NCBI RefSeq assembly: GCF_003334765.1 | Contig: NZ_QOWT01000022.1 | DNA: 64,000 nucleotides | From: Escherichia coli | GTDB lineage: Bacteria > Pseudomonadota > Gammaproteobacteria > Enterobacterales > Enterobacteriaceae | Strand: one strand, 5' to 3' | Shown: positions 1,928 through 14,268 of the stretch, one piece after another | How the letters are laid out: every line of letters begins with the position of its first letter | Position numbering within the stretch: the first letter of the stretch is position 1 | Notes under the pieces: generated by a model | The model's database searches: none | Seen by the model: only the letters and a program-made list of their open reading frames with translations | Told to the model about the DNA's origin: nothing | Translations under genes and position numbers: made by a program

Positions 1928-2828
1928 CCGTTCCTCCGTTGGTTACGCTCCACTGCGTACATGATGCCGCCTGTGTTTTGTTCAGGACCACATCCGCCAG
2001 CGGCGAAGCCAGCTCCACACGCTGCACACCCTCAACATGCAGGGCGGCAAAGATGGCGCTACGGCGAATATCCCGGCCAAGACGCGTCTGACTGGCGATG
2101 TACTTCTGCAGACTGGCTTTTGCCGCTGCCATTACCGGCTCTGCTTCCGGTCCCGGATAGAGAAAAATGGTGGCTTCCACGCGGTACGGGATGATTTCTG
2201 CGCTGCGAACCGTCAGACGGTCAGCCACCGGGCGGACGTTCTCACTGTTCAGGGCTTTCTCCACCACATCCAGCAAGTCTTTTTCTGCTGTTCCATCGCC
2301 TTCGCGGCTAAGGACAGTCAGCACCACCTCTGCAGGTGCCGGACTGGTTGCACTGGCATCCGCCACCCGACCGTCGGCGCTTCGGGCATGAAATTCATAA
2401 GCTGCAGTTGGCCCCGCAACTGAAAGCCCTTCAAAGGCTGCAGGCACACGCAGGCGTAACGCTTCATCGCTTTCCATCACAGCTGCAACGGGCGGCACAG
2501 CGTCATCATCAGCAGGCGTCACCGTCAGGCGTTTCACGTTGTAGTTGGCAGCGAGCTGGTCAAGATCGCCGCCCATCGCATAAGCCACCATCACCGCCTG
2601 CGCGGCTTCGTTAATGCGCTGGCGCAGAAGCAACTCACGGTAAGCGTTCTCCTGCAACAATTTGGTGACGGGTTCAGATTCCAGTTCCAGCGTGCGGATC
2701 ACTGCTTCCTGCTCATCTTTCGGATGAAGCGCCACAAATTCTGCCTTGCGTTCGGCAAGCAGCGTCTCAAAGTCCGGCACATCCACAATCTGCGGCGCAG
2801 GCAACTGCGAAAGGTCAATCACTGCCAT
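1920..2828 (-). CDS. J: Baseplate assembly protein J (P2 gpJ-like).
   Basis: Starting from MAVIDLSQLPAPQIVDVPDFETLLAERKAEF, the protein is colinear with my recollection of P2 gpJ through ...HVEGVQRVELASPLADVVLN...GGTDE. The upstream ATG at 2867 was rejected as an extension. 302 aa. Confidence 0.9.
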   Translation of the reverse strand: MAVIDLSQLPAPQIVDVPDFETLLAERKAEFVALHPKDEQEAVIRTLELESEPVTKLLQENAYRELLLRQRINEAAQAVMVAYAMGGDLDQLAANYNVKRLTVTPADDDAVPPVAAVMESDEALRLRVPAAFEGLSVAGPTAAYEFHARSADGRVADASATSPAPAEVVLTVLSREGDGTAEKDLLDVVEKALNSENVRPVADRLTVRSAEIIPYRVEATIFLYPGPEAEPVMAAAKASLQKYIASQTRLGRDIRRSAIFAALHVEGVQRVELASPLADVVLNKTQAASCTQWSVTNGGTDE

Positions 2829-3174
2829 TCTCTGCTCCTGTTGATACGGAAAGGGAAACAGGCACACCGTTATTACGCCGCCCGGTCAGCTCCACCACCA
2901 TTGAACCGTCAAAATCGCTGTTGATGGTGATGGAATCCAGCGTCAGCCGTGGCTCCCAGCGACTCAGCGCCACATACACTGCCGACATGACCTGCAGGCG
3001 TAATGCCGGATTTTGTGGCTGGTCTATCAGTGCCGACAGCAGAGAACCATATTCCCGACGGGCAATACGGCTACCCTGCGGTGTCAGCAGAATGTCCCGC
3101 ACCGACTGGCGCAGATGGTCAATATCAGTAATGGCTTTGCCGCTGGTATTGTTCATCCCGCTATAAAGCGTCAT
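2815..3174 (-). CDS. W: Baseplate protein W (GPW/gp25 lysozyme-like family).
   Basis: 119-aa ORF with DIDHLRQSVRDILLTPQGSRIARREYGS, typical of gpW/gp25. Its start overlaps the V stop as ATGA. Confidence 0.85.
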   Translation of the reverse strand: MTLYSGMNNTSGKAITDIDHLRQSVRDILLTPQGSRIARREYGSLLSALIDQPQNPALRLQVMSAVYVALSRWEPRLTLDSITINSDFDGSMVVELTGRRNNGVPVSLSVSTGAENGSD

Positions 3175-3749
3175 ACCGGACCTCCGGTTGTGTCGCCGCC
3201 TTTCAGGACGCCAGTATGCTGATGCGCATCAACCACAATCCCGTTAGAGCTCATCGCTCCACCGCCCTGGGTAACGCCACCATTGATCACCACTTCGCTG
3301 TTAATACGCGTGCGGTCAGCCTCCAGCATAAACTCACTGGTTTTCAGGGTGATATTGTCAGCGGCCTCAATGACCATTGATTTGATGCCCCTGACATACC
3401 AGCGCCCGGTGGCGGGTTCGTATTCAAACCAGCCGCCGTCAGGATGTTCTGTCACGCAGGCGTCCGCCGACGTCGAAGGTGGCGCGAACTGATTCGAATA
3501 GATGGCGGGTAACGCAAAGGCGGTTTCCAGATTGCCGCCCAGACTCAGCAGCACCACCTGCTCACCTTCCGATGGTCGCCACCATGTGCGGGCATTACCC
3601 GCGCGCAGCGTCAGCCAGTTAATCCAGTTGGTTTCAAGGTCGCCCGTTTTCACCCGACAAAGCCAGTTTTCCCGGTCCACTTCGGTGACTACACCTATGC
3701 GGATCAGATTGGTGATAAGGCGCATGATTTCGGTTAGTTGTGCGTTCAT
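3171..3749 (-). CDS. V: Baseplate spike / assembly protein V (P2 gpV-like).
   Basis: From MNAQLTEIMRLITNLIRIGVVTEVD...WINWLTLRAGNARTWWRPSEGEQVVLLSLGG the protein is colinear with remembered P2 gpV. The ORF-track start at 3992 extends into AT-rich inserted DNA and was rejected. 192 aa. Confidence 0.9.
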   Translation of the reverse strand: MNAQLTEIMRLITNLIRIGVVTEVDRENWLCRVKTGDLETNWINWLTLRAGNARTWWRPSEGEQVVLLSLGGNLETAFALPAIYSNQFAPPSTSADACVTEHPDGGWFEYEPATGRWYVRGIKSMVIEAADNITLKTSEFMLEADRTRINSEVVINGGVTQGGGAMSSNGIVVDAHQHTGVLKGGDTTGGPV

Positions 3750-3852
3750 AGATATATGATGACAGCTGAAAACTTGTTTATAACTTCTTGCAAATTGTGG
3801 TATCGATGGTACAAATTGATAAAAGGATAAAAAACAACCAATAGGTGGATAA

Positions 3853-4659
3853 ATGAGTGTTATGAATCCAATAAGTTCTAATATATTTAATGCTGAATTT
3901 TTAAACACCCCGGCAGCGGCACTTGCCGCATGGATTTCCATTATTGGAGCTGTTATAACTTTGGTGACGATAGTTATAAGAGCACTATTCAAATATAGAA
4001 AATCTCATGATGTAATTTTGAAAAAATCAGGAATACCTGCGTTTATATTGAATTTTTTTCTTATACGAATATCATTAAAAAGGCTGCCTACTATCACATG
4101 GGCTGAAAAATCAATCACGGTTCTCTTTTCACTTCTTTTTTTGTGTGCAATTTATATTTTTGGTCCAGTTTTCATCCAAGCCATTAGAACCCCACCAAAT
4201 AGCACATTGCTTTATTGGATAAAATCCGGTGAATCATTTTATATGTCAAAAAAACTGGCGACTGCAGCTACAATATTAACCACTCCTGATTGGGAAATAT
4301 CAAAGGATGATTGCGAAGAGTCATCCTCTGCCAGTACAGAGAAGTACAAATCATTAACTATCGAACATAAAGAAATTCTTTGTAAACTACTAACCACTGA
4401 TGAAGGGAATGCTTACATTGATGAAGAAGTCAAGAATTTCGTTAAAGACAAATTCTTTATCTATTCCTTTGCCCCAACAACCATATTTATTCTATTATGG
4501 ATTTCTTTGGGTTTTATACTGACCATTCACTATTCTAAAAAAGTTAGGAAATATATTCTGACTGAACAAAAAAATGCAATTCATTGGGCATATGGTGAAT
4601 TCAAGACAGAAGGAATCTATTCAATATATCAAGAGTTAGAACGTAAGACTCACCATTAA
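3853..4659 (+). CDS. Hypothetical multi-pass membrane protein (268 aa), an AT-rich moron in the S/V (P2 orf30) locus.
   Basis: RBS AGGTGG lies 5 nt before the ATG. Hydrophobic segments are AALAAWISIIGAVITLVTIVI, ITVLFSLLFLCAIYIFGPVFIQAI and TTIFILLWISLGFILTI. It is on the opposite strand to the tail operon and its composition is clearly AT-rich compared with the flanks. I recognise no homology. Confidence 0.6.
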   Translation: MSVMNPISSNIFNAEFLNTPAAALAAWISIIGAVITLVTIVIRALFKYRKSHDVILKKSGIPAFILNFFLIRISLKRLPTITWAEKSITVLFSLLFLCAIYIFGPVFIQAIRTPPNSTLLYWIKSGESFYMSKKLATAATILTTPDWEISKDDCEESSSASTEKYKSLTIEHKEILCKLLTTDEGNAYIDEEVKNFVKDKFFIYSFAPTTIFILLWISLGFILTIHYSKKVRKYILTEQKNAIHWAYGEFKTEGIYSIYQELERKTHH

Positions 4660-5047
4660 GACCCAACAAACGACGCTCTGCGTAACGCACTTCCGGTCCT
4701 TTGCGGCTGACGCGATCGCGCAGGCCATAATGGTGAACGCGGGCAATGCGCTGCACCTTACCTTCAAACTGCACGCTGGCAGAATCGGCGCTGGCGGCAG
4801 TTTTCAGGTATTTGGTGGTGCGCAGCTTTGCAAACATCTGACGTTTGATGCGGCCTTTTTTACTGCGCGCCGTGACCTTGCGCGGTTCATAACTGCTGCC
4901 ATCTGGATTGCGCTGCATCCTGATATTCTGCTGCTGTGTCCGGCGCAGTTCCTGCGCCAGCTGGCGCATCATGCGGCTTCTTGCGACTGGTTCCAGATTC
5001 GCCAGTAAGGCACTAAGCCAGTCGTCCACCTTCTGCAGTTCAGCCAC
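4601..5047 (-). CDS. S: Tail completion / virion morphogenesis protein S (P2 gpS-like).
   Basis: 148 aa with ...NIRMQRNPDGSSYEPRKV...KKGRIKRQMFAKL...HHYGLRD..., colinear with remembered gpS. The last ~17 codons lie in the AT-rich insert and overlap the convergent ORF 3853-4659. Confidence 0.85.
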   Translation of the reverse strand: MAELQKVDDWLSALLANLEPVARSRMMRQLAQELRRTQQQNIRMQRNPDGSSYEPRKVTARSKKGRIKRQMFAKLRTTKYLKTAASADSASVQFEGKVQRIARVHHYGLRDRVSRKGPEVRYAERRLLGLNGESYVLTLDILNRFLLS

Positions 5048-5357
5048 GTTTCACCGTCCACATTTCTTCAGGTTCATCGGGTTCTGCTACCGCTTCAACG
5101 CTCGACACACTGCCGTCAGTGCTGACCAGCACACGTTCCGTCAGTTGCAGGTTAAGGCTGATATCACAGACATCGTTGCGCAGAATATCCACCTCAAAGG
5201 TAAATAGTTTTTCCCGTAACGCCGGGTTATTGATGGCATCGGGCTGGTTATCCCGCAGCCACAGCAAAACCGGGGCCATCAGCAGATTCTGGTCGCCGCT
5301 GAAATCCTCAATCACCACGTTCAGGGTGTAACCACGCAGCCCTACGAGTTCACTAAA
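5040..5357 (-). pseudogene. R: 5'-truncated tail completion gene R (P2 gpR-like). The N-terminal ~40 codons are deleted.
   Basis: Residues ...GYTLNVVIEDFSGDQNLLMAPVLLWLRDNQPD...ISLNLQLTERVLV match the central and C-terminal part of gpR. The upstream part of the 152-aa ORF (5358-5498) is merely the antisense of the Q fragment. Confidence 0.7.
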
Positions 5358-5906
5358 GGCAGTATCTTTCACCTGATGGAGCCGGACCTGAACCAGGAAA
5401 TTTACGGCCTGCCGGAATATCTGTCCGCCATTCCGTCCGCCTTGCTGAACGAGTCCGCTACGCTGTTCCGGCGTAAATACTACATCAATGGCAGTCATGC
5501 AGGGTTCATCATGTATATGACCGACGCCGCGCAGAACCAGGAGGACGTGAACAACATCCGCCAGGCCATGAAAAGCGCTAAAGGACCGGGCAACTTCCGC
5601 AACCTGTTTATGTATTCACCCAACGGCAAAAAGGACGGGATTCAGATAATCCCGCTGTCAGAGGTAGCGGCAAAGGATGAGTTTCTGAACATTAAGAACG
5701 TGAGCCGAGACGACATGATGGCTGCACACCGCGTTCCGCCGCAGATGATGGGGATTATGCCGAGTAATGTTGGGGGATTTGGGGATGTGGAAAAGGCGAG
5801 TAAGGTGTTTGTCCGTAACGAATTGATACCGCTGCAAAAGCGAATTAAAGAAATTAATGAATGGTTGAGTGATGAAATAATTTCTTTCCAACCATATGAA
5901 TTATAA
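5358..5906 (+). pseudogene. Q: C-terminal ~half of portal (capsid) protein Q (P2 gpQ-like). The N-terminal half is deleted.
   Basis: GSIFHLMEPDLNQEIYGLPEYLSAIPSALLNESATLFRRKYYINGSHAGFIMY...VFVRNELIPLQKRIKEINEWL is colinear with remembered P2 gpQ residues ~165-340. No Q N-terminus or P terminase gene is present upstream. Confidence 0.8.
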
Positions 5907-5907
5907 T

Positions 5908-5934
5908 AAAGTAGGGCAAATAATGCCCTACTTT
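5908..5934. terminator. Perfect 11-bp stem hairpin between the convergent 'Q and 285-aa genes.
   Basis: AAAGTAGGGCA-aataa-TGCCCTACTTT. It has A/T-rich flanks on both sides and overlaps the stop codon (5928-5930) of the minus-strand gene. Confidence 0.55.
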
Positions 5935-6785
5935 AACCAAATATTATAATCCAATCTTCCTACGTATCTTGAAAAAACAGCCAGAGCAATTGCTTGCCCT
6001 ACACTTGTTAATTCAATTCCTTGATAGTTGCTCTTTGAAAATTTTTCTAAAAATGCAGACACATGAGGGGCAACTAACTTAAGATTTGAAATATATGCAC
6101 TCTTATCTTTTATATCAGTCGGATATTTACTCATAAAATAGTCTTCAACATCCATCCCTAAAAAAGTATTCCATGAACAAGCCCCTGCATATTGAATGTG
6201 ATATATCTGGGCTTGAGACAAATTAAACCCATTAGTATACATTGATTCAAAGTTTCTAAAATTGTGCTCCAACAAATCCAATCGAACACCATTAACAGGG
6301 TCTTTGATCTCAACATTCTTGAGAAGAAAAACTATCGTTATAAGTGATATTTGTTGCTGTGTTAACTTGGGAACGACGGTAACTGCCTCCGTTAAAACTA
6401 TATCTCTAAAATCGTCATTGTTATTGGAGACTCGTTCAACTAACAACTGAGAAAGCACATCCATATTAGCTTTCTTTCCCTTCCTGGCTGATGACTTTAA
6501 TGCCTCAGTCAATGTAGCCTGAACGTCCGGATCGCAAAATTTATCAATAATCAATCTATCAACGTTTTTTGTTAAATCCGAAACGACACGCTCTTCAAAA
6601 TCTTTTGCATTCTCTTGAGCTGCAGCATAAGCAACATCTTTCAATTTTGGAAACTGATTTTCGAAGAGAATGTTGAATAGTTCTCTAACCTCGGAAAACG
6701 ACATCCCTGAAACATTTACATTATTTCCAGCTTGAATTGCATACGAATTATTACCTATTTGTTGCTTTTGCTTATCACTAAACAT
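5928..6785 (-). CDS. Hypothetical 285-aa protein (cargo locus between Q and cos), a candidate defence/Abi component.
   Basis: RBS GGAGGA lies 7 nt before the ATG at 6785 and 9 nt after the stop of the upstream 81-aa ORF. It is AT-rich. The N-terminus is KQQIGNNSYAIQAGNNVNVSG and the rest looks all-helical. I recognise no catalytic motif. Confidence 0.75.
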   Translation of the reverse strand: MFSDKQKQQIGNNSYAIQAGNNVNVSGMSFSEVRELFNILFENQFPKLKDVAYAAAQENAKDFEERVVSDLTKNVDRLIIDKFCDPDVQATLTEALKSSARKGKKANMDVLSQLLVERVSNNNDDFRDIVLTEAVTVVPKLTQQQISLITIVFLLKNVEIKDPVNGVRLDLLEHNFRNFESMYTNGFNLSQAQIYHIQYAGACSWNTFLGMDVEDYFMSKYPTDIKDKSAYISNLKLVAPHVSAFLEKFSKSNYQGIELTSVGQAIALAVFSRYVGRLDYNIWLK

Positions 6786-6794
6786 ATATCCTCC

Positions 6795-7040
6795 TTATTT
6801 TTTATCACCTGTATTTATACAATCAATTTTAATATCACCTCTAGCCTGGACAGCAGTTGAATTATCACCAACTGATTGGCTCATAGAATTATATTTATTT
6901 TTTGTAGTGATAAGTAATCCAGCTAAAGCGCTAACTGCAGCCAAAAATGCAACAATAGAATCAAAACCAGGATCCATATAAAGCCATAATCCTGCAATCG
7001 ATGCCAGCATACATGTAATGACTATTGCAAAAATTTTCAT
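6795..7040 (-). CDS. Small 2-TM membrane protein (81 aa), first gene of a two-gene cargo operon.
   Basis: RBS AGGAGA precedes the ATG at 7040. There are two hydrophobic helices (IFAIVITCMLASIAGLWLY and IVAFLAAVSALAGLLI). The polar tail SQSVGDNSTAVQARGDIKID resembles the N-terminus of the downstream protein. Confidence 0.65.
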   Translation of the reverse strand: MKIFAIVITCMLASIAGLWLYMDPGFDSIVAFLAAVSALAGLLITTKNKYNSMSQSVGDNSTAVQARGDIKIDCINTGDKK

Positions 7041-7063
7041 AAATTCTCCTTCTAATGGAAGTG

Positions 7064-7092
7064 GTTATACCGAAAACAATTTCCTTTTACAA
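7064..7092 (-). promoter_or_regulatory. Candidate sigma70 promoter for the 81-aa/285-aa operon.
   Basis: The minus strand reads TTGTAA-N17-TATAAC, ending ~24 nt upstream of the ATG at 7040. Confidence 0.35.
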
Positions 7093-7107
7093 CCACGCAC
7101 AGCGCGC

Positions 7108-7127
7108 GCTCGTATCCCCGCCACGCC
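7108..7127. other. cos-like site (cohesive-end region of a 186/P2-type phage).
   Basis: The reverse complement reads GGCGTGGCGGGGATACGAGC. As I recall them, the 186 and P2 cohesive ends begin GGCGTGGCGGGGAAAG... and GGCGAGGCGGGGAAAG.... The site is a GC-rich island between two AT-rich loci, at the expected map position next to the end of Q. Confidence 0.5.
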
Positions 7128-7215
7128 TGCCCGCTTTGTGTAGTGGTTTTCATGCACCTGCATGACATAAGTAAAAGCCCGCCAGAACTGGCGGGACTGA
7201 GCAAAAACGATCCTT

Positions 7216-7245
7216 TTGCGATCATTCATTTTCATGCGCTATAGT
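7216..7245 (+). promoter_or_regulatory. Candidate sigma70 promoter for the 3-gene operon.
   Basis: TTGCGA-N18-TATAGT. It would give a ~95-nt leader before the AAGGAG RBS and the ATG at 7346. Confidence 0.3.
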
Positions 7246-7345
7246 CATGCAACAAACGCATACGAACCATATGGTTAGATTACTCATCAAGTCAGATGGA
7301 TTTTCAGGCAGATTGCCACAGCAATTGTAAAGGAGCGAGATTGAA

Positions 7346-8347
7346 ATGGGTGGAGAGACTTCGGCTATACAACGAGTCGCGGGTAAGATTTCTGATGATA
7401 TTTTCTCAGTGTTCAAATGGGATCGTGCCGCTAGAGCGGACATGAATTGGGATTGTTGCCAAGAGGCTCATTCCAAGAAAACACATCCAAGCGATGTTGT
7501 ATTTTTCTACATAGATCCATATGAGGAGGAAATGGTCTATCTCAACACAGACCTCAAAAGCTATGCAGAAGGTACTATTGGGAAAAAAATAGTCGAGGGA
7601 GCTTTAACATCGCTTGCTTTAGCTACCGAGTGTGCAAATGTCAGTGAAGAATGGCGATTGAAATATGTTCATGATGATTCTTTAGGTTATAACGTAAGAG
7701 GGTTATTATTCTTATATAACCATGATAATTTATATGATAAAGACTTCTATGAGAATATTACAAAAAAATTAGATCACTCATCTATAAATTGCCCTCCAAA
7801 CATCAAACTACATTTGCTTGACCCTTATAAAATATCAGATTTGATAAACATATCTTCTGACATAACTAAGTTAATTGGTTCAGGCAAACTTCCTCAACCT
7901 GATAAGTTCACATATTATTATCCAGATCTTTCCCTAACAAGAATAAAGCACCCTATTAATCAGACAACACCTGCAACAATTGAATTATTAACATCACCAT
8001 ACATTATAATAAAGCATGAGGCTTTCAGTTGGCTCAGGGATAAAAACCCTGAGGGATATGTTGTTTATTACAATCAACCGGGGGATTCAGTAGACGAATT
8101 CGTTTACTTCTTTGATATGTTATCAACTTATCAGATATTAACCGAAGGTAAACCAATCGTATTACGCCATTGTCACATTCACCCAAATGAAAATGCCATT
8201 CATCATTTTGAAAGAGCGAAAAAGAAATACAGCACAGACTGGCTCTTAGGCGAGGATGAAAGACTTTTTCTTAAAATTGACTTCGACAAGACAGACAAAA
8301 TTGTTGTTGAATATAATCTTGAACAAATCGGCATGGAGCAACGATAA
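7346..8347 (+). CDS. Hypothetical 333-aa protein with an N-terminal PD-(D/E)xK nuclease-like motif, gene 1 of a 3-gene cargo operon.
   Basis: RBS AAGGAG. The N-terminus has an acidic helix (E4, D17-D18), then HPSD50VVFFY, then VYLNTD69-L-K71, which is the canonical restriction-endonuclease-fold spacing. The gene is AT-rich. I do not recognise the C-terminal ~220 aa. Confidence 0.7.
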   Translation: MGGETSAIQRVAGKISDDIFSVFKWDRAARADMNWDCCQEAHSKKTHPSDVVFFYIDPYEEEMVYLNTDLKSYAEGTIGKKIVEGALTSLALATECANVSEEWRLKYVHDDSLGYNVRGLLFLYNHDNLYDKDFYENITKKLDHSSINCPPNIKLHLLDPYKISDLINISSDITKLIGSGKLPQPDKFTYYYPDLSLTRIKHPINQTTPATIELLTSPYIIIKHEAFSWLRDKNPEGYVVYYNQPGDSVDEFVYFFDMLSTYQILTEGKPIVLRHCHIHPNENAIHHFERAKKKYSTDWLLGEDERLFLKIDFDKTDKIVVEYNLEQIGMEQR

Positions 8348-9426
8348 TGGCTAAAAAACTATATTTCGCAACTGATAAAAATATTTATGATGCATTACAT
8401 CATAAAAGGATAACCGCTGCAAAGTTGCATGAATTATTGTTGAATCGAGGTGTGTTTTTATCACCAGAACTCGACAAGGAAATACTAATCGAGGAAATAT
8501 CCAAACTTCCTCACGGATTTAATGAATTAGAACACATAAAAAAACTGGTCAAAACATATGACCCAAGGGAAAGCACTACTAGTGTGAGCTTCCAAACCTC
8601 AACAAATCAGGCCGAATTAAAAAGTGCTGCTGAAGCACTAAAAAAAACATGCTCCCCTAGTAAAGGTCAAAGCCTGAATATTGTAGCTAAAAAAGATGGC
8701 TCGCTTACAGTAGAATACAAATATGAAGAAATAGACCTGTCTAAAACTGCATTACGTCAGATCGACAAGCGGAATGTTATAATAGAACTTCGCCCTGGAG
8801 CTGACAAAGTTGAAGTACGTATGCCTCAAAACCCCGAGGCAAAAAAAGTTATTGAGAGCTTGCAAAACGAGCTATCTAAAATCAAGTCCGAACCTATCGA
8901 GCGCTTCGAAATATCATTACTAGCAATAACTGATCCTACATTGCGAAGTCAGTTTTTTCAGGAATTAATGAATGGTCTACGCGGTTATGAGACTGATGAC
9001 GTAACAAAAGTCGAATTAAATCGCAGTACTGATGCTAGTGAGGATGAAGACAAGGAAGAAACTATTGATACCGGATTTGTTAAGAAAGCCGTCCTTAATG
9101 GTGAAGGGGTAAATAGTTCAGCTATATTTTCTCAACTACATGAGAAAGGTTATTATATCGGGCGTATTGCATGGTCTTCAAAGCCGACAAGTGGAATTGG
9201 AGACAGAATCAACGTCGAAGCATTTTTCAAAGACTCAGAAAAATGCTGTGACTTTGCCTATCAAATTAAAGGTATAAACAATCAAAAAGAAGACGGTTTC
9301 AATGTAACCATTCGCGCGGCAACGGCACAAGAGAAAAAACATATTAGTGAATTAATTGAGTCCGCCGCTGAAAATGCCTATAATATAATAATAGGATCAG
9401 AGGTGAACGAAGATGAAAAAGGTTAA
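8347..9426 (+). CDS. Hypothetical 359-aa protein, gene 2 of the 3-gene cargo operon.
   Basis: The start overlaps the gene-1 stop (TAATG). It contains an acidic linker, DASEDEDKEE. I recognise no motif. Confidence 0.7.
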   Translation: MAKKLYFATDKNIYDALHHKRITAAKLHELLLNRGVFLSPELDKEILIEEISKLPHGFNELEHIKKLVKTYDPRESTTSVSFQTSTNQAELKSAAEALKKTCSPSKGQSLNIVAKKDGSLTVEYKYEEIDLSKTALRQIDKRNVIIELRPGADKVEVRMPQNPEAKKVIESLQNELSKIKSEPIERFEISLLAITDPTLRSQFFQELMNGLRGYETDDVTKVELNRSTDASEDEDKEETIDTGFVKKAVLNGEGVNSSAIFSQLHEKGYYIGRIAWSSKPTSGIGDRINVEAFFKDSEKCCDFAYQIKGINNQKEDGFNVTIRAATAQEKKHISELIESAAENAYNIIIGSEVNEDEKG

Positions 9427-10096
9427 ATGGCTTAAGTTAAACATACGGCTTGAGTTTGAAACAGCCGTTAGACGTCTTTCTCTTGATTCTTTTACAGAGG
9501 ATAAAGGGAAAGGGTTCATTTTTGATAAAATACGCCATGATTTTGCAAATGGTCGCTTTGTCGAGCGTATTGTTTATCATGATAAAATATTAAGCTTTGA
9601 CGGAAGCGAAACTACCGTTGAAAGAATCGAATATCGCACCACAAATTTTAGCGTGGCTTTAGACTCTCTTCCTGTAATGCAGATTACTAACCCACCCAGA
9701 ACTTTAAAGCCTTTTTCGCAGGCTTTGGTAAAAAATCTTGGCTTAGGTGTTAGTTTGGAAGAAATTGACATAAACCCTATAGACTGGCTTAATGAAATAT
9801 CTTCAAGTGTAAATATCAATTTAACACAACTTGATATTTCAAGGGTTAGAGTTTCTGATTACGCCACAGCTAAAATGCAAATAATTGGCAGCAATGATCT
9901 TAGGAAGTATTATAAAGAAGAATTAGAGGGTAAAAAAATAAGAATTGACAGGCTTGTTTGCTCTGTTAATTCATTAGAATATTCCGGTAAGCTCAAGATC
10001 ACCAATAGCGGCCTTGCTTATATTGATGTTAGAAATGAGAATGAGTTTACGAAAATCGTTTTTGATACGTTAAAAAAAGTCACCCTTCAATCATAG
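9413..10096 (+). CDS. Hypothetical 227-aa protein, gene 3 of the 3-gene cargo operon.
   Basis: The start lies 14 nt inside the end of gene 2. The sequence looks beta-rich. I recognise no motif. Confidence 0.65.
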   Translation: MKKVKWLKLNIRLEFETAVRRLSLDSFTEDKGKGFIFDKIRHDFANGRFVERIVYHDKILSFDGSETTVERIEYRTTNFSVALDSLPVMQITNPPRTLKPFSQALVKNLGLGVSLEEIDINPIDWLNEISSSVNINLTQLDISRVRVSDYATAKMQIIGSNDLRKYYKEELEGKKIRIDRLVCSVNSLEYSGKLKITNSGLAYIDVRNENEFTKIVFDTLKKVTLQS

Positions 10097-10152
10097 ATGG
10101 CTTATAAGGAGTTACTTCACCTAACGCCTCGCCTTACTCGTTGTTCAACCTC

Positions 10153-10183
10153 GTAGGCGTCAGAATCAAGTTCTGACGCCTAC
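10153..10183. terminator. Strong hairpin between the convergent operons (end of the 3-gene operon and end of the dinI-like gene).
   Basis: GTAGGCGTCAGAA-tcaag-TTCTGACGCCTAC, a perfect 13-bp stem. There is no clear U-tract on either strand. Confidence 0.5.
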
Positions 10184-10191
10184 AATGTTTC

Positions 10192-10425
10192 TTAATGCAG
10201 CCAGCTATCGTCCTCCCAGACCTGCTGCATTATTTCCATCACTCGCTTTTTGTCTTCATCCAGTTTTAACCCGCTCAGCTCAACGCCATTGGCGCTGCCC
10301 TTACGGATACGAATTGCTGTTTTGGGATACAGAGGGCGCAAATTACGGTAAAGCTCGGATTCAAGGGCGTCCAGGGTAGACTGGCTAATCTTCTGCTCTT
10401 TATCGATCATTATTTCAATGCGCAT
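10192..10425 (-). CDS. DinI-family protein (77 aa).
   Basis: MRIEIMIDKEQKISQSTLDALESELYRNLRPLYP...IRIRKGSANGVELSGLKLDEDKKRVMEIMQQVWEDDSWL is colinear with E. coli DinI (MRIEVTIAK...ALAGELSRRI...EDKQRISEILQETWE). RBS GAGGTGG. The longer ORF-track start at 10497 was rejected. Confidence 0.8.
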   Translation of the reverse strand: MRIEIMIDKEQKISQSTLDALESELYRNLRPLYPKTAIRIRKGSANGVELSGLKLDEDKKRVMEIMQQVWEDDSWLH

Positions 10426-10435
10426 AAAAGCCACC

Positions 10436-10624
10436 TCAGCTGATGACATCCATTGAGCGGTTGTATTCGTGGGTTCTGATTTTTGCCATGAGTTCATCTG
10501 TCAGTTCAGAAACCCACTGCAGAGCCAGCCCCTTCTCTTCATCACTACACTCACTAGCCGCTACAAGCTTAAGAAAAAAATCAATGCGCTGGAGCTTCAA
10601 AGACTCCAAAAAATAGTCCTGCAT
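10436..10624 (-). CDS. Small hypothetical protein (62 aa), first gene downstream of the LexA box and possibly Tum-like.
   Basis: RBS AGGAGGAAAG precedes the ATG at 10624. The position corresponds to the SOS-controlled tum locus of 186. I did not verify any sequence homology. Confidence 0.5.
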   Translation of the reverse strand: MQDYFLESLKLQRIDFFLKLVAASECSDEEKGLALQWVSELTDELMAKIRTHEYNRSMDVIS

Positions 10625-10665
10625 CTTTCCTCCTATGACACCAAAGCAACACTGTATACATAACC

Positions 10666-10685
10666 ACTGTTTGTATTTACAGTAT
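10666..10685. promoter_or_regulatory. LexA (SOS) box.
   Basis: ACTGTTTGTATTTACAGTAT fits CTG-N10-CAG with the TACTGTATATATATACAGTA consensus flanks. It lies ~40 nt upstream (minus-strand sense) of the 62-aa ORF. Confidence 0.65.
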
Positions 10686-10775
10686 ATAATAATATTACTG
10701 ATGTAAAACGTTTTTTACGTTCATCAGCCTGATATGCCTGGTATTATTAAGAGCACGAATTGTTAACCTGCGTAA

Positions 10776-13190
10776 TTAATACAGGTTCCGCCACTTATCA
10801 TCTTCCTGCAAACGCTGGTTCCGATAGAAGATACGCAGGCCTGCTCCTGACGGAATACTGCCACCACGTAGGAGTAAATCGACCTCTTTCTCGCTGCCAT
10901 CAAATCCTCTGGACTTCAGCTCATAGACGAGCTGCTGTCGCTGATGATCTGTAATTCGCTGTTTGTAGTCTTTACGCCGTTTCAGCTTAACTAGGCGTAA
11001 CCTCGCTGCCAGTTCCCGGCGCTCTTTTTTGCTCATACTGTGCAGGTAATCGTGCAATTCCTTGTCATCCATGCGGGTAATGTCCGTTCTGGTGTCCCCA
11101 TCAGCTGATTTATCTTTATCCTGTTGGTTCAAATTTTCAGCAAGGGGACAGTTATTGCCACGAGTCCAAGGGGCGCAAGCGCCCTGGTCGGCTGCCGCCT
11201 CCTGAACGTCAACGGCTTTACGAACCATTTTCCACTTCACTGCATGAGTGCAGATCTTGCCCTCTGCAATGGGTGACCAGATGCCATAAATACGAATGCC
11301 GTGATCGCCATAGGCGGTCGGCTCTTCGTTGATTTCATAAGCGGTTCTGATGAGGTGATATTTACGGGGAACCAGTACGCCGCCCTGCTTCATGATGTAG
11401 GTGGCAAAACAACCAGCATCAGCAGCAGCCAGAATGGCATCAAGACGCGGGTTATCCAGTACCGGCGCACCTGCTTTTTTGTCACCCTGTTGCCTTGCCG
11501 CCTGACCAGCCAGCAAGCGAAGTTCACGGTAAGCCTGACGCCCCGGAATACCAAAGAAGCGGAATTGCTGAACACGATGCAGAGACGCCCAGGCATTAAC
11601 GTATTCAGCGTTATCACGCAGGGATTTACCCGTTTCCTTGCTGATCTCGCCAGCCAGACCACGCCCGTCAATGTTCTTACTGATGTATTTCGCGATGTAG
11701 CTTGTTGGCGTACCTTTGCGCGGGTTTATCAGCTCAGACTTAAAGCGTGGCCCCGTGTTATTGCCCAGCTCCTCGCGGTCTTCACGGATGGCAAACTTAC
11801 GCAACAATGCAGTAATGGCGCGGCGGTCTTTTTTGCGCATGAAACACAACAGGTGCCAGTGAACTGTGCCGTCATGATGCGGTTCAGCCACCCGCACGCC
11901 ATACCAGCGCAACCCGGCTTTGTGCATAGCCTTACGAAATGCAGCAAACATGCCGACCAGATAATCGCTGCTTTGTCTTACCGTCGCGTTTGTCCAGGTC
12001 GGGTTTGGTCTGCCGTTATTGAGCGTGGAATGGAAACGCGACGGACAGGTGATAGTGTAGAAAACGGCACAGTCACTGCGCATTTCTGCGATAAGCTCCA
12101 GACCTTTAACACAGGCCATCATCTCATTGCGGCGATGCGCCGGGTTGCTGCTGCTGGCGTTTACCACATCCTCCATGTCCAGCGTGTCGCCGTCTTCGTT
12201 CACCAGTTCATGAGAACGGAAAAACTCCAGCGACTTACGGCGCTGCTCACGTTTATGCATCACGGCTTCATAGCTGACATAGGGAGATGCTTTTTTGCTG
12301 ACCAGGCAAACAGCACGCAACTGCTCTTCCCGCCATTCGCAACGCATCTTCCATAATTTCCGGTACCACCAATCGGCGCACAACATACGCGCCAGCGAAC
12401 CCGGAATGAGTTCATAGGGCACGGGTTTACGGCGGTTTCTTTTCCGACGAAGTTGCTCAAACGCAGGCGGGATAACATCCAGTCGCAGGGTTTCTGCTGC
12501 CACCTTTTCCCATGTCTTGCGGATTTCTTCTGGCTTAACATCATCGGTGGCGTACAAATCACCACAAGCGGCATCAAGACACATGCTCATATGCGCAGCG
12601 ACAAGAGTAGACAGGCGTTTCACCTGATCCTGACTCATTTCAGGCAGAATCAGCAGGCCGTCCAGCCCTACATGGCTTGCCATAAAACGAAAAGATGCAG
12701 ATAGCTGGCTGTCGCGTACATGCTCCAGTCGCTCCAAACATGGCTTAATCGTCTCACGCAAATAGCGGGAATAAGCCTTTGGCCTGCCCAGGCTGCTGAA
12801 GTATTCAATACGTTGCATCAGCGGCTTGCTGATATGGGAAGGCTGGGCATTGACGTCCGCCAGAATGACCATATCTGGATTAAAACGCTGCTGCTCATGC
12901 GCCAGCTTTGCCCGACTAATGAGCTTATCCTGCTCCATTTCGCGCTGGACAGGATCACGGGATTCATTAAAGAAATAACGCTCCCAGACCTGATCACTCA
13001 GTGCCTCGCGGCGCAGGTGTTCCTGTTCGTTATCGGCAGCGTACAGAGCGATCAGGTTTGAAAGCGCAGAAACCGGCGCAACTTCCGCCGGGTCCAGATA
13101 AGGGTTAATGGCCTTTTTCGGGCTGTTCCATGAGAACGCTGCGGCAGCCTCGTTAAAGCCGCAGCAGTTGTTCATATCGGCATGGCTCAT
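10776..13190 (-). CDS. A: Replication initiation endonuclease A (P2/186 gpA, HUH rolling-circle nickase).
   Basis: 804 aa. The HUH-type motif is [15 protein letters not shown] and the catalytic Tyr region is [12 protein letters not shown]. Size and position match gpA. Confidence 0.92.
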
Positions 13191-14044
13191 GCACGTACTC
13201 CGTACACGGCAGAACTATCCACGCCACGCGAATAATCAAATCCCACCCAGCAGCGCGGCCCGGAAACAGCAATGATTTCTGTTGCTGATTTACCCTCGCC
13301 AGCTGCCACACCGATGCTGCGTTTTACCTTGATATAGTGGTGAGTAAAATTGCGATACAGCGAACGGATCAGGGATGTATCACTGTTAGAAACAATGACC
13401 GGATGTCCTTCTGATGACCGATGTTCAAGAACGGATGCCAGGTGATACTGGTCATCTTCAGTGAAACCATCAGTGTGATAGCCGGAAAACGTACCGTCAT
13501 ACGGCGGATCGCAATACACCACATCCCCCGCCTTCAACATCGCCAGCGTTTCATCAAAGCTGGCGCAGATAAACGTTGCTCGCTGGGCTTTTTCTGCAAA
13601 TGCGCGAATTTCTTTTTCAGGGAAATACGGATTTTTATAATTACCGTAGGGAATGTTGAAATGCCCGCTCTTGTTATAGCGACATAAACCACGGTAACCG
13701 TGACGATTGAGATACAGGAAATATACCGCTTTCATGAAATCAGTAATTTCAGTTGAGTAATTAAACTCCTGCCTTATGTTGTAATAAGCCCCCCCCCTGT
13801 TTGCGATCTCAAATAAAACTCTGGCGCGAGATATAAACGATTCACAATCAGCAGCAACCTTTTTATAGAGGTTGATTAAATCAGGATTAATATCCGCAAC
13901 AAGATAGCTGGGGTACTCCGTCTCCATCATCACTGCACAGGAACCCGCGAAAGGTTCAACCAGTCGCGGGCCAGCAGGAAGATGCTTTTTCAGTTCGGAC
14001 ATAATGGCGGTTTTATTTCCCGCCCATTTCAGGATGGTGCTCAT
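13187..14044 (-). CDS. dam: Phage-encoded DNA adenine methyltransferase (Dam family, GATC-type).
   Basis: [11 protein letters not shown]..., the SAM motif EPFAGS and the catalytic DPPY motif ([10 protein letters not shown]) are present. The start overlaps the traR-like stop (ATGA) and the stop overlaps the start of A. Confidence 0.9.
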
Positions 14045-14268
14045 ACAGCACCTCCGTTGTAATGTTTGCCTTTCAGCTCTGCGATTTCCTGACAGGTAAT
14101 GCAAAGCTGCACACCCGGAATGGCACGGCGGCGTGCTGGCGGAATTGGCGCTTCACACTCAATGCAAAGCACGCGGGACACGCCCGGCGTTTTGGCACGG
14201 GCAGCACGGATATGACGCTGGCGTTCTTCTTCAACGCGCTGCTGTACGAGATCCATTGCATCAGCCAT
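14041..14268 (-). CDS. TraR/DksA-family C4 zinc-finger protein (P2 orf82-like).
   Basis: 75 aa with CIECEAPIP...CITCQ, four Cys in CxxC...CxxC spacing. This is the usual position upstream of A in P2-like phages. Confidence 0.8.
   Translation of the reverse strand: MADAMDLVQQRVEEERQRHIRAARAKTPGVSRVLCIECEAPIPPARRRAIPGVQLCITCQEIAELKGKHYNGGAV

Follow-up and report, generated by a model that had tools for sequence, protein, structure and literature searches.

What do the three AT-rich genes in the cargo slot of a P2-like Escherichia coli prophage encode, and how might their products act on an infecting phage? The genes lie in a stretch of 64,000 nucleotides (nt) of contig NZ_QOWT01000022.1 (hereafter the window, meaning the whole stretch that was analyzed), and a first-pass annotation of this DNA, made from the sequence alone, proposed that they form an uncatalogued anti-phage system with a nuclease-like first gene. 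The first part of the question has a ready answer: judged by the identity of its proteins, the operon is Rst_3HP (hereafter also 3HP), a catalogued anti-phage system that is already known and not new. As a system discovery, the locus has no value, given that DefenseFinder or PADLOC would label it Rst_3HP and that identical proteins were tested in 2022. The value of the analysis is that of a mechanistic lead: the parts can be assigned, by remote homology and structure prediction, to a putative GAPS4a-related nuclease (Hp1), a putative GAPS4b-related partner (Hp2) and a subunit with a predicted RdgC-like fold (Hp3), which turns "three hypothetical proteins" into a concrete model that is cheap to test.

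Identity of the operon

The PADLOC models for Hp1, Hp2 and Hp3 (PDLC03004-06) match the three products over their full lengths (E = 1.1e-239, 2.7e-248 and 2e-157, respectively), and string comparison with Table S2A of Rousset et al. showed that all three proteins are 100% identical to those of pFR109, which is listed there as "hp + hp + hp" from E. coli E1114 (Rousset et al. 2022, Cell Host Microbe). The assignment to Rst_3HP follows from these two observations; it contradicts the proposal of an uncatalogued system and confirms the caveat, attached to that proposal, that an Rst_3HP-type identity could not be excluded. The gene order also agrees, with three adjacent genes on the same strand in the order Hp1, Hp2, Hp3, and the same WP accessions are listed among the P2 loci in Table S5A of Rousset et al. 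The system is rare in E. coli, being present in 18 of 5,426 complete genomes.

Rst_3HP was originally described as three genes without a clear predicted domain that, when expressed from the native promoter (pFR109), protect against P1, the sole phage reported to be blocked in a panel of eight, with no toxicity reported (Rousset et al. 2022). Because identical proteins were cloned from the P2 A-cos-Q hotspot and protect against P1, the earlier claim of an anti-phage operon in this hotspot stands. The cloned fragment corresponds to positions ~7106-10203 of the window, with the reverse primer site at 10184. The operon, the proteins and the cos-proximal location in the P2 hotspot are all the same here, whereas the sequence to the left of cos differs, the first 185 nt of the cloned fragment having no match in the window, and the prophage that carries the system here has a 7-kilobase (kb) deletion.

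The first-pass annotation held that its proposal would fall if the proteins had full-length matches to a characterized system. This has come about in part, because 3HP has a validated phenotype and no published mechanism: none was found in the literature searched, no HHpred entry for the system was found in Table S3 of Rousset et al., and, within the supplementary files of that work, pFR109 and E1114 are named only in Table S2.

Hp1 is a predicted PD-(D/E)xK nuclease

The AlphaFold2 model of Hp1 (predicted local distance difference test score, pLDDT, 86.4; predicted template modeling score, pTM, 0.86) contains a core of alpha-beta-beta-beta-alpha-beta topology that is canonical for PD-(D/E)xK nucleases (helix 3-22, strands 33-36, 46-57 and 62-73, helix 80-99 and strand 115-125), and structural similarity to solved PD-(D/E)xK members was detected. 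In this model, the first helix carries E4, the second strand D50 and the third strand D69-L-K71. These residues are nearly invariant: D50, D69 and K71 are retained in all 81 Hp1 homologues, a set that includes the 80 genomic loci described below, and E4 is retained in 80 of the 81. In 30 homologues, with identity down to 34%, E4, H47, P48, D50, D69, K71, S72 and Y73 are all invariant, and the predicted active-site motifs are THPSD and TDLKSY. Both parts of the earlier prediction for this protein, namely, a PD-(D/E)xK protein with E4, D50, D69 and K71, and the placement of D50, D69 and K71 in a nuclease-fold active site, are thus supported, the former by conservation and the latter by the position of these residues in strands 2 and 3 of the modeled core.

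Recent RefSeq annotation names Hp1 a "PD-(D/E)XK nuclease domain-containing protein". A Pfam scan, with a set that lacks PF26115 and PF26110, gave nothing above threshold for Hp1, and a scan of NCBIfam gave no match even at E values up to 10. Hp1, with a calculated isoelectric point (pI) of 5.4, is predicted to be a PD-(D/E)xK nuclease of the GAPS4a type, with an active site formed by E4, D50, D69 and K71, and is presumed to be the effector of the system.

Homologues of Hp1 with 30-36% identity, annotated as 'nuclease related protein', are also encoded in the 13-kb records of Pseudomonas phages 54-4 and 99-2 (OR621021.1 and OR621024.1, respectively), which may represent satellites.

Relationship of Hp1 and Hp2 to GAPS4

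GAPS4 consists of two genes, and GAPS4a is a PD-(D/E)xK protein with the motif HGxD...SxK, in which substitution of alanine for the conserved aspartate abolishes defense; GAPS4a and GAPS4b form a 2:2 complex, with the GAPS4b dimer arranged as a ring. Once DNA breaks appear, the DNA of both host and phage is degraded by the system, which also lowers viability at high multiplicity of infection and is attenuated by phage homing endonucleases (Mahata et al., bioRxiv 10.1101/2023.03.28.534373, 10.1101/2025.09.07.674715). 3HP is mentioned in neither of these two papers. For comparison, we used GAPS4a and GAPS4b of E. coli RiKo, the sequences of which were transcribed from the AlphaFold 3 file in the supplement of the GAPS4 paper; the transcription was checked against NCBIfam, where GAPS4a scored 291 bits (cut-off 270) and GAPS4b 324 bits (cut-off 300).

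The profile of the Hp1 family aligns with RiKo GAPS4a over 207 columns (hhalign probability 95.2%, E = 2.5e-8), and HMMER gives 40.8 bits for the same pair, with D50 of Hp1 aligned with D49 of RiKo, the essential aspartate. The stretch DCCxxxHxKKTHxxD is visibly common to the Hp1 family and RiKo GAPS4a, and the two share the motif C-x4-H-x-KKTH-x-x-D. When H47-P-S-D50 and D69-L-K71 of Hp1 are set against HGxD...SxK of GAPS4, the histidine, the aspartate and the lysine are retained, glycine is replaced by proline, and serine by aspartate; Hp1 thus has the canonical D-x-K where GAPS4a has S-x-K.

Nearly all of Hp2 (pI 5.5) is covered by a weak match to the NCBIfam GapS4b model (NF047934; residues 14-314, E = 2.2e-5, 23.5 bits), and members of the Hp2 family score 15-37 bits against this model, with E values reaching 2.4e-9. 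Among precomputed Pfam hits, PF26115 (PDDEXK_GAPS4) is found on homologues of Hp1, and PF26110 (GAPS4b_N) on homologues of Hp2, so that these two families span both systems. Hp1 and Hp2 themselves come without a GAPS4 Pfam match because PF26115 and PF26110 are absent from the Pfam copy that was scanned, in which Hp2, too, gave nothing above threshold. The layout of the genes is also alike, with a PD-(D/E)xK nuclease at the N-terminus of a protein of ~310-330 amino acids (aa) and an overlapping gene for a partner of ~355-385 aa. From these comparisons, Hp1 and Hp2 are distant homologues of GAPS4a and GAPS4b, a superfamily-level relationship that is newly recognized here, and 3HP is not a member of the curated GAPS4 subfamilies. 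By analogy with GAPS4b, Hp2 is presumed to be the scaffold and regulator that carries the nuclease.

The two systems also differ. The canonical GAPS4 locus that was inspected, on an Ewingella plasmid and 96% identical to RiKo, consists of two genes, and the gene after them is unrelated and on the opposite strand, whereas 3HP has an obligate third gene. Furthermore, five complete E. coli genomes with 3HP are not among the matches listed in the published table of GAPS4 homologues.

Hp2 contains a strongly acidic stretch, STDASEDEDKEETID (residues ~227-243; positions 9025-9075 of the window). In distant Hp2 homologues, an acidic or glycine-rich stretch is seen by eye at about the same place. The stretch in Hp2 may act as an auto-inhibitory linker that is flexible or that mimics DNA.

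Hp3 has a predicted RdgC-like fold

Searches with Hp3 gave no match in Pfam, in NCBIfam (E up to 10) or among the sequences of the PDB. However, when the AlphaFold2 model of Hp3 (pLDDT 92.0, pTM 0.83) was compared with PDB structures using Foldseek, RdgC ranked first (E = 3e-7, probability 1.0), and the model comprises the base and centre domains of the RdgC fold in a standalone two-domain protein. Given this fold match without a sequence match, Hp3 has, as modeled, the RdgC fold but stands outside the RdgC family; compared with RdgC itself (PDB 2OWL), it shows no sequence similarity and is shorter, with 227 aa against ~300 aa. Proteins of the RdgC-like fold class bind DNA non-specifically, as dimers in the shape of a ring or a horseshoe whose basic face contacts the DNA; the phage-exclusion member of this class is RexA (Adams et al. 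2024). Lambda RexA and Hp3 differ in their partners: Hp3 goes with the nuclease and the GAPS4b-like protein rather than with a membrane protein of the RexB kind.

The Hp3 family comprises 708 representatives at 50% clustering, and the 150 relatives listed are short standalone proteins, nearly all of ~200-236 aa. Hp3 is nearly devoid of invariant residues, only G34 and G64 being conserved at a level of at least 90%, and it is basic (pI 9.0), whereas Hp1 and Hp2 are acidic. Such properties fit a role in binding or sensing rather than catalysis, and Hp3 is presumed, from the modeled fold, to be the DNA-binding or DNA-sensing subunit. The impression that the second and third proteins have no recognizable feature is superseded by this fold and by the distant homology of Hp2 to GAPS4b. 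We also considered that Hp3 could be a piece split off from GAPS4b or GAPS4a, or a duplicate of Hp2, and rejected this origin because neither HMMER nor hhalign detected any similarity.

Conservation and distribution of the trio

Two sets of loci were compared. A genomic scan that started from Hp1, with one genome per species, yielded 238 relatives, of which the best 80 were examined; a viral set of 31 loci was found in IMG/VR starting from Hp3. All three genes are present in order in 76 of the 80 genomic loci, the other four being cut by contig ends, and the gene for Hp2 lies upstream of that for Hp3 in all 31 viral loci, with the full trio in 30 and the exception again cut by a contig end. 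The genomic loci come from Gamma- and Betaproteobacteria, Cyanobacteria, Verrucomicrobia, Bacteroidota, Clostridia and Caldiserica. In all of the loci that could be evaluated (76 genomic and 30 viral), which span several phyla, the three genes thus form an obligate set, an observation that is new here and that answers the question of whether the three genes co-occur, raised in the first-pass annotation. There is no case of Hp3 without Hp1 and Hp2 among these loci, and the third gene, present in all of them, sets 3HP apart from the two-gene architecture of GAPS4. The overlaps between the genes of the trio are conserved as well, which suggests co-translation in fixed proportions.

The location of the trio is less constant than its composition. 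In enterobacterial P2-like phages, the slot between gpA and the portal gene holds the trio, as seen in 26-27 of the 31 viral loci (gpA is nearby in 27), whereas gpA is not near the trio in any of the 80 genomic loci, which lie beyond the close relatives among the enterobacteria. The suggestion that the trio always occupies the A-cos slot therefore did not hold, and a P2-specific trio was likewise rejected; the absence of gpA near the genomic loci argues for a mobile cassette. Further occurrences are on plasmids, in prophages of Klebsiella and in small phage records from Pseudomonas and Vibrio (for Pseudomonas, the Hp1 homologue was seen).

The identical trio is also carried by two circular E. 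coli records of 55 kb, NZ_CP148585.1 and NZ_CP148400.1, which are annotated as plasmids, together with a set of P2-like structural, lysis and replication genes seen over a 19-kb stretch. These records may be P2-like phage-plasmids or assembled episomal phage.

Proposed mechanism and alternatives

Our preferred reading, which we hold with only slightly more belief than doubt, is that Rst_3HP is a three-subunit DNA-sensing DNase of the GAPS4 superfamily. Under this model, Hp1 would be the PD-(D/E)xK effector that cuts DNA, Hp2, as the GAPS4b-like partner, would hold the nuclease and regulate it, and Hp3, as a basic protein with the RdgC fold, would supply or modify DNA recognition and set or gate the trigger. 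Upon infection, the binding of phage DNA, on its entry or during its replication, would license Hp1 to degrade DNA, the likely signals being linear ends, breaks, or recombination or replication intermediates. Four elements of this model are inferred: that the subunits form a complex, that Hp3 binds DNA, what serves as the trigger, and whether the response is abortive. PD-(D/E)xK defense nucleases that sense DNA ends or aberrant DNA are also known from Shedu (SduA) and Hachiman (HamA), but the sensors of these systems, an N-terminal domain in Shedu and the helicase HamB in Hachiman, are unrelated, and neither system includes a GAPS4b-like or RdgC-like subunit.

Several observations weigh against this model. 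Hp1 has no match, at E values up to 10, to the NCBIfam GapS4a model (NF047933, cut-off 270 bits), and the 23.5 bits obtained for Hp2 compare with a GapS4b cut-off of 300, short of subfamily membership; because both proteins miss these cut-offs, a shared mechanism is an extrapolation over a large distance. Comparison of the Hp2-family hidden Markov model with the single RiKo GAPS4b sequence, including by hhalign, was not significant, so that the link between Hp2 and GAPS4b is provided only by the NCBIfam and Pfam profiles. GAPS4 has a broad range, whereas activity of 3HP is reported for P1 only, that is, for one of eight phages. With respect to Hp3, none of 68 family members matches the Pfam RdgC models, Hp3 profiles of 29 and 68 sequences did not find RdgC among the PDB sequences, about 75 residues of RdgC are missing from Hp3, and similarity of fold alone is no proof of DNA binding. 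In addition, the literature searched contained no biochemical data on 3HP, and a 2024 survey still counts Rst_3HP among the systems that fit no known domain family.

A narrower version of the DNA-sensing model, possible but viewed with more doubt than belief, is that 3HP is a three-component branch of GAPS4 in which the obligate RdgC-fold clamp alters recognition, such that the complex would respond not to DNA breaks in general but, for example, to intermediates of recombination or replication, or to the free DNA ends of certain phages. If true, this would explain the contrast between 3HP, reported for P1 only, and the broad GAPS4, and would link the RdgC/RexA fold to a second, membrane-independent mechanism of phage exclusion. 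The two-gene GAPS4 and the three-gene 3HP thus offer a natural comparison for how a DNA-sensing nuclease gains trigger specificity.

The nuclease fold and the DNA-binding fold are equally compatible with a direct, restriction-like action, in which the Hp3 clamp would bring Hp1 to a feature of P1 DNA, such as its unprotected linear ends before cyclization, only phage DNA would be destroyed, and the cell would survive without an abortive response. The expression of the identical system from its native promoter without reported toxicity is in line with such an action, and a range limited, as reported, to P1 is easier to reconcile with recognition of one specific DNA feature than with a general response to breaks. 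We nevertheless regard it as unlikely, considering that GAPS4, the nearest characterized relative, degrades host as well as phage DNA and lowers viability when the multiplicity of infection is high, and that scans with PADLOC, Pfam and NCBIfam showed no methylase or other self/non-self mark in the operon. Activity reported for a single phage out of eight would also be expected of a toxin with a protein trigger, that is, Hp1 held inactive by Hp2 and Hp3 and freed by a specific P1 protein; the RdgC-like fold would then serve protein binding, as it does for Iml3-Chl4 in kinetochore assemblies. The fast evolution of Hp3, with G34 and G64 as its only highly conserved residues, is what an arms-race sensor should show, and many hotspot systems, PARIS for example, are described as sensing phage proteins. 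Such a toxin appears quite unlikely, however, because GAPS4 yielded no escape phages and is triggered by DNA damage alone, and because a DNA ligand is favored both by the basic character of Hp3 (pI 9.0) and by the DNA binding on record for its entire fold class.

The fold of Hp3 also brings to mind an RdgC-like anti-recombinase, which would coat double-stranded DNA and block the RecA-type strand exchange that P1 would need for cyclization or for recombination-dependent replication; Hp3 would then be the active antiviral component, with Hp1 and Hp2 being accessory. Cyclization of P1 DNA depends on recombination. RdgC itself binds DNA irrespective of sequence and is an inhibitor of strand exchange by RecA (Adams et al. 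2024). This explanation seems improbable, even so, when the conservation patterns are considered: the catalytic D50, D69 and K71 of Hp1 are invariant in the 81 homologues, whereas Hp3 is nearly without invariant residues, so that selection appears to be focused on the nuclease, and Hp3 never occurs without Hp1 and Hp2 in the evaluable loci. The essential nuclease aspartate of GAPS4 likewise argues against this explanation.

Operon layout and prophage context

The features of the operon are listed in Table 1. The coordinates and base composition agree with the earlier description of three coupled, same-strand, AT-rich open reading frames (ORFs): the stop codon of gene 1 and the start codon of gene 2 share one base in TAATG (8345-8349), gene 3 begins within gene 2, with 14 nt (9413-9426) in common, and the GC content is 0.33-0.39 over positions 7500-10000 compared with 0.51-0.54 in gene A (11000-13000). 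The ribosome-binding site ahead of the first gene and the hairpin after the last stop codon, both noted previously, are found in the sequence. Of the nine terminator-like sites in the region, compared with 2.7 +/- 1.7 in shuffled sequences, the strongest is this hairpin, GTAGGCGTCAGAA-TCAAG-TTCTGACGCCTAC, which leads into a T-rich tail. The candidate sigma-70 promoter has 9 of 12 consensus matches, a kind of match that is not above chance in this region, and falls within the cloned fragment that is active from the native promoter.

Table 1. Position in the window of the 3HP genes, their candidate expression signals and the adjacent packaging site
Feature	Position	Strand	Remarks
cos-like packaging site, P2-like element	7106-7135	.	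left edge of the cargo slot; context, outside the system
Candidate sigma-70 promoter (TTGCGA, 18-nt spacer, TATAGT)	7216-7245	+	~100 nt upstream of Hp1
Shine-Dalgarno sequence AAGGAG	7329-7334	+	11 nt upstream of the Hp1 ATG at 7346; read from the sequence
Hp1 gene	7346-8347	+	333 aa; ORF call
Hp2 gene	8347-9426	+	359 aa; ORF call
Hp3 gene	9413-10096	+	227 aa; ORF call
Intrinsic terminator hairpin, 13-14 base pair (bp) stem	10153-10183	+	between the operon and the convergent dinI-like gene

As proposed in the first-pass annotation, the operon occupies an interval of a P2-like prophage that is bounded by the cos-like site on one side and by the dinI-like/A block on the other. The sequence of the cos-like site is common to the cos-proximal part of the cloned fragment and to the cos regions in Table S2A of Rousset et al. 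On the 3' side, the neighbors, both on the - strand, are the dinI-like gene (Pfam DinI, 6.5e-24) and then replication gene A, and intact P2-like elements are annotated in the same order, namely, portal, variable cargo, trio, DinI, A and dam. The LexA box mentioned near the dinI-like gene was also recovered: the LexA-box-like CTGT-N8-ACAG site CTGTTTGTATTTACAG is found at 10667-10682 (another lies at 10317-10332), upstream of a 62-aa ORF and the dinI-like gene on the - strand, and is consistent with SOS control of this small operon.

Compared with an intact element on the E. coli plasmid pZ1322HEC0001-3, the prophage in the window is missing 7,058 bp. The deletion junction is at 5325-5332, with an 8-bp overlap, and the stretch affected extends over 2277-14211. 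The deletion comprises the end of tail gene R, lysC, lysB, the lysozyme and holin genes, and X, L, M, N, O and P, as well as the first ~450 nt, or half, of the portal gene. With its head and lysis genes lost, the prophage is therefore defective, although the defense cargo is retained.

The hotspot also holds, across cos from the operon, an AT-rich gene pair on the - strand (5928-7040), which encodes a 285-aa protein of the LPO_1073/Vpar_1526 family (NCBIfam, 3e-72) and an 81-aa protein that, by the look of its sequence, is membrane-spanning; neither protein matches PADLOC. We considered the LPO_1073 gene and its small membrane neighbor as a part of the 3HP system and rejected them, given that the pair is outside the active cloned fragment and accompanies the trio in only 2 of the 31 viral loci, which indicates separate cargo. 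The pair is possibly another defense candidate.

Finally, a gene with a GC content of ~0.33 on the + strand (3853-4659) encodes a 268-aa protein of the DUF6216 family. It is located between baseplate gene V and virion morphogenesis gene S, on the strand opposite to these, and looks like a non-essential addition (moron) in the tail cluster.

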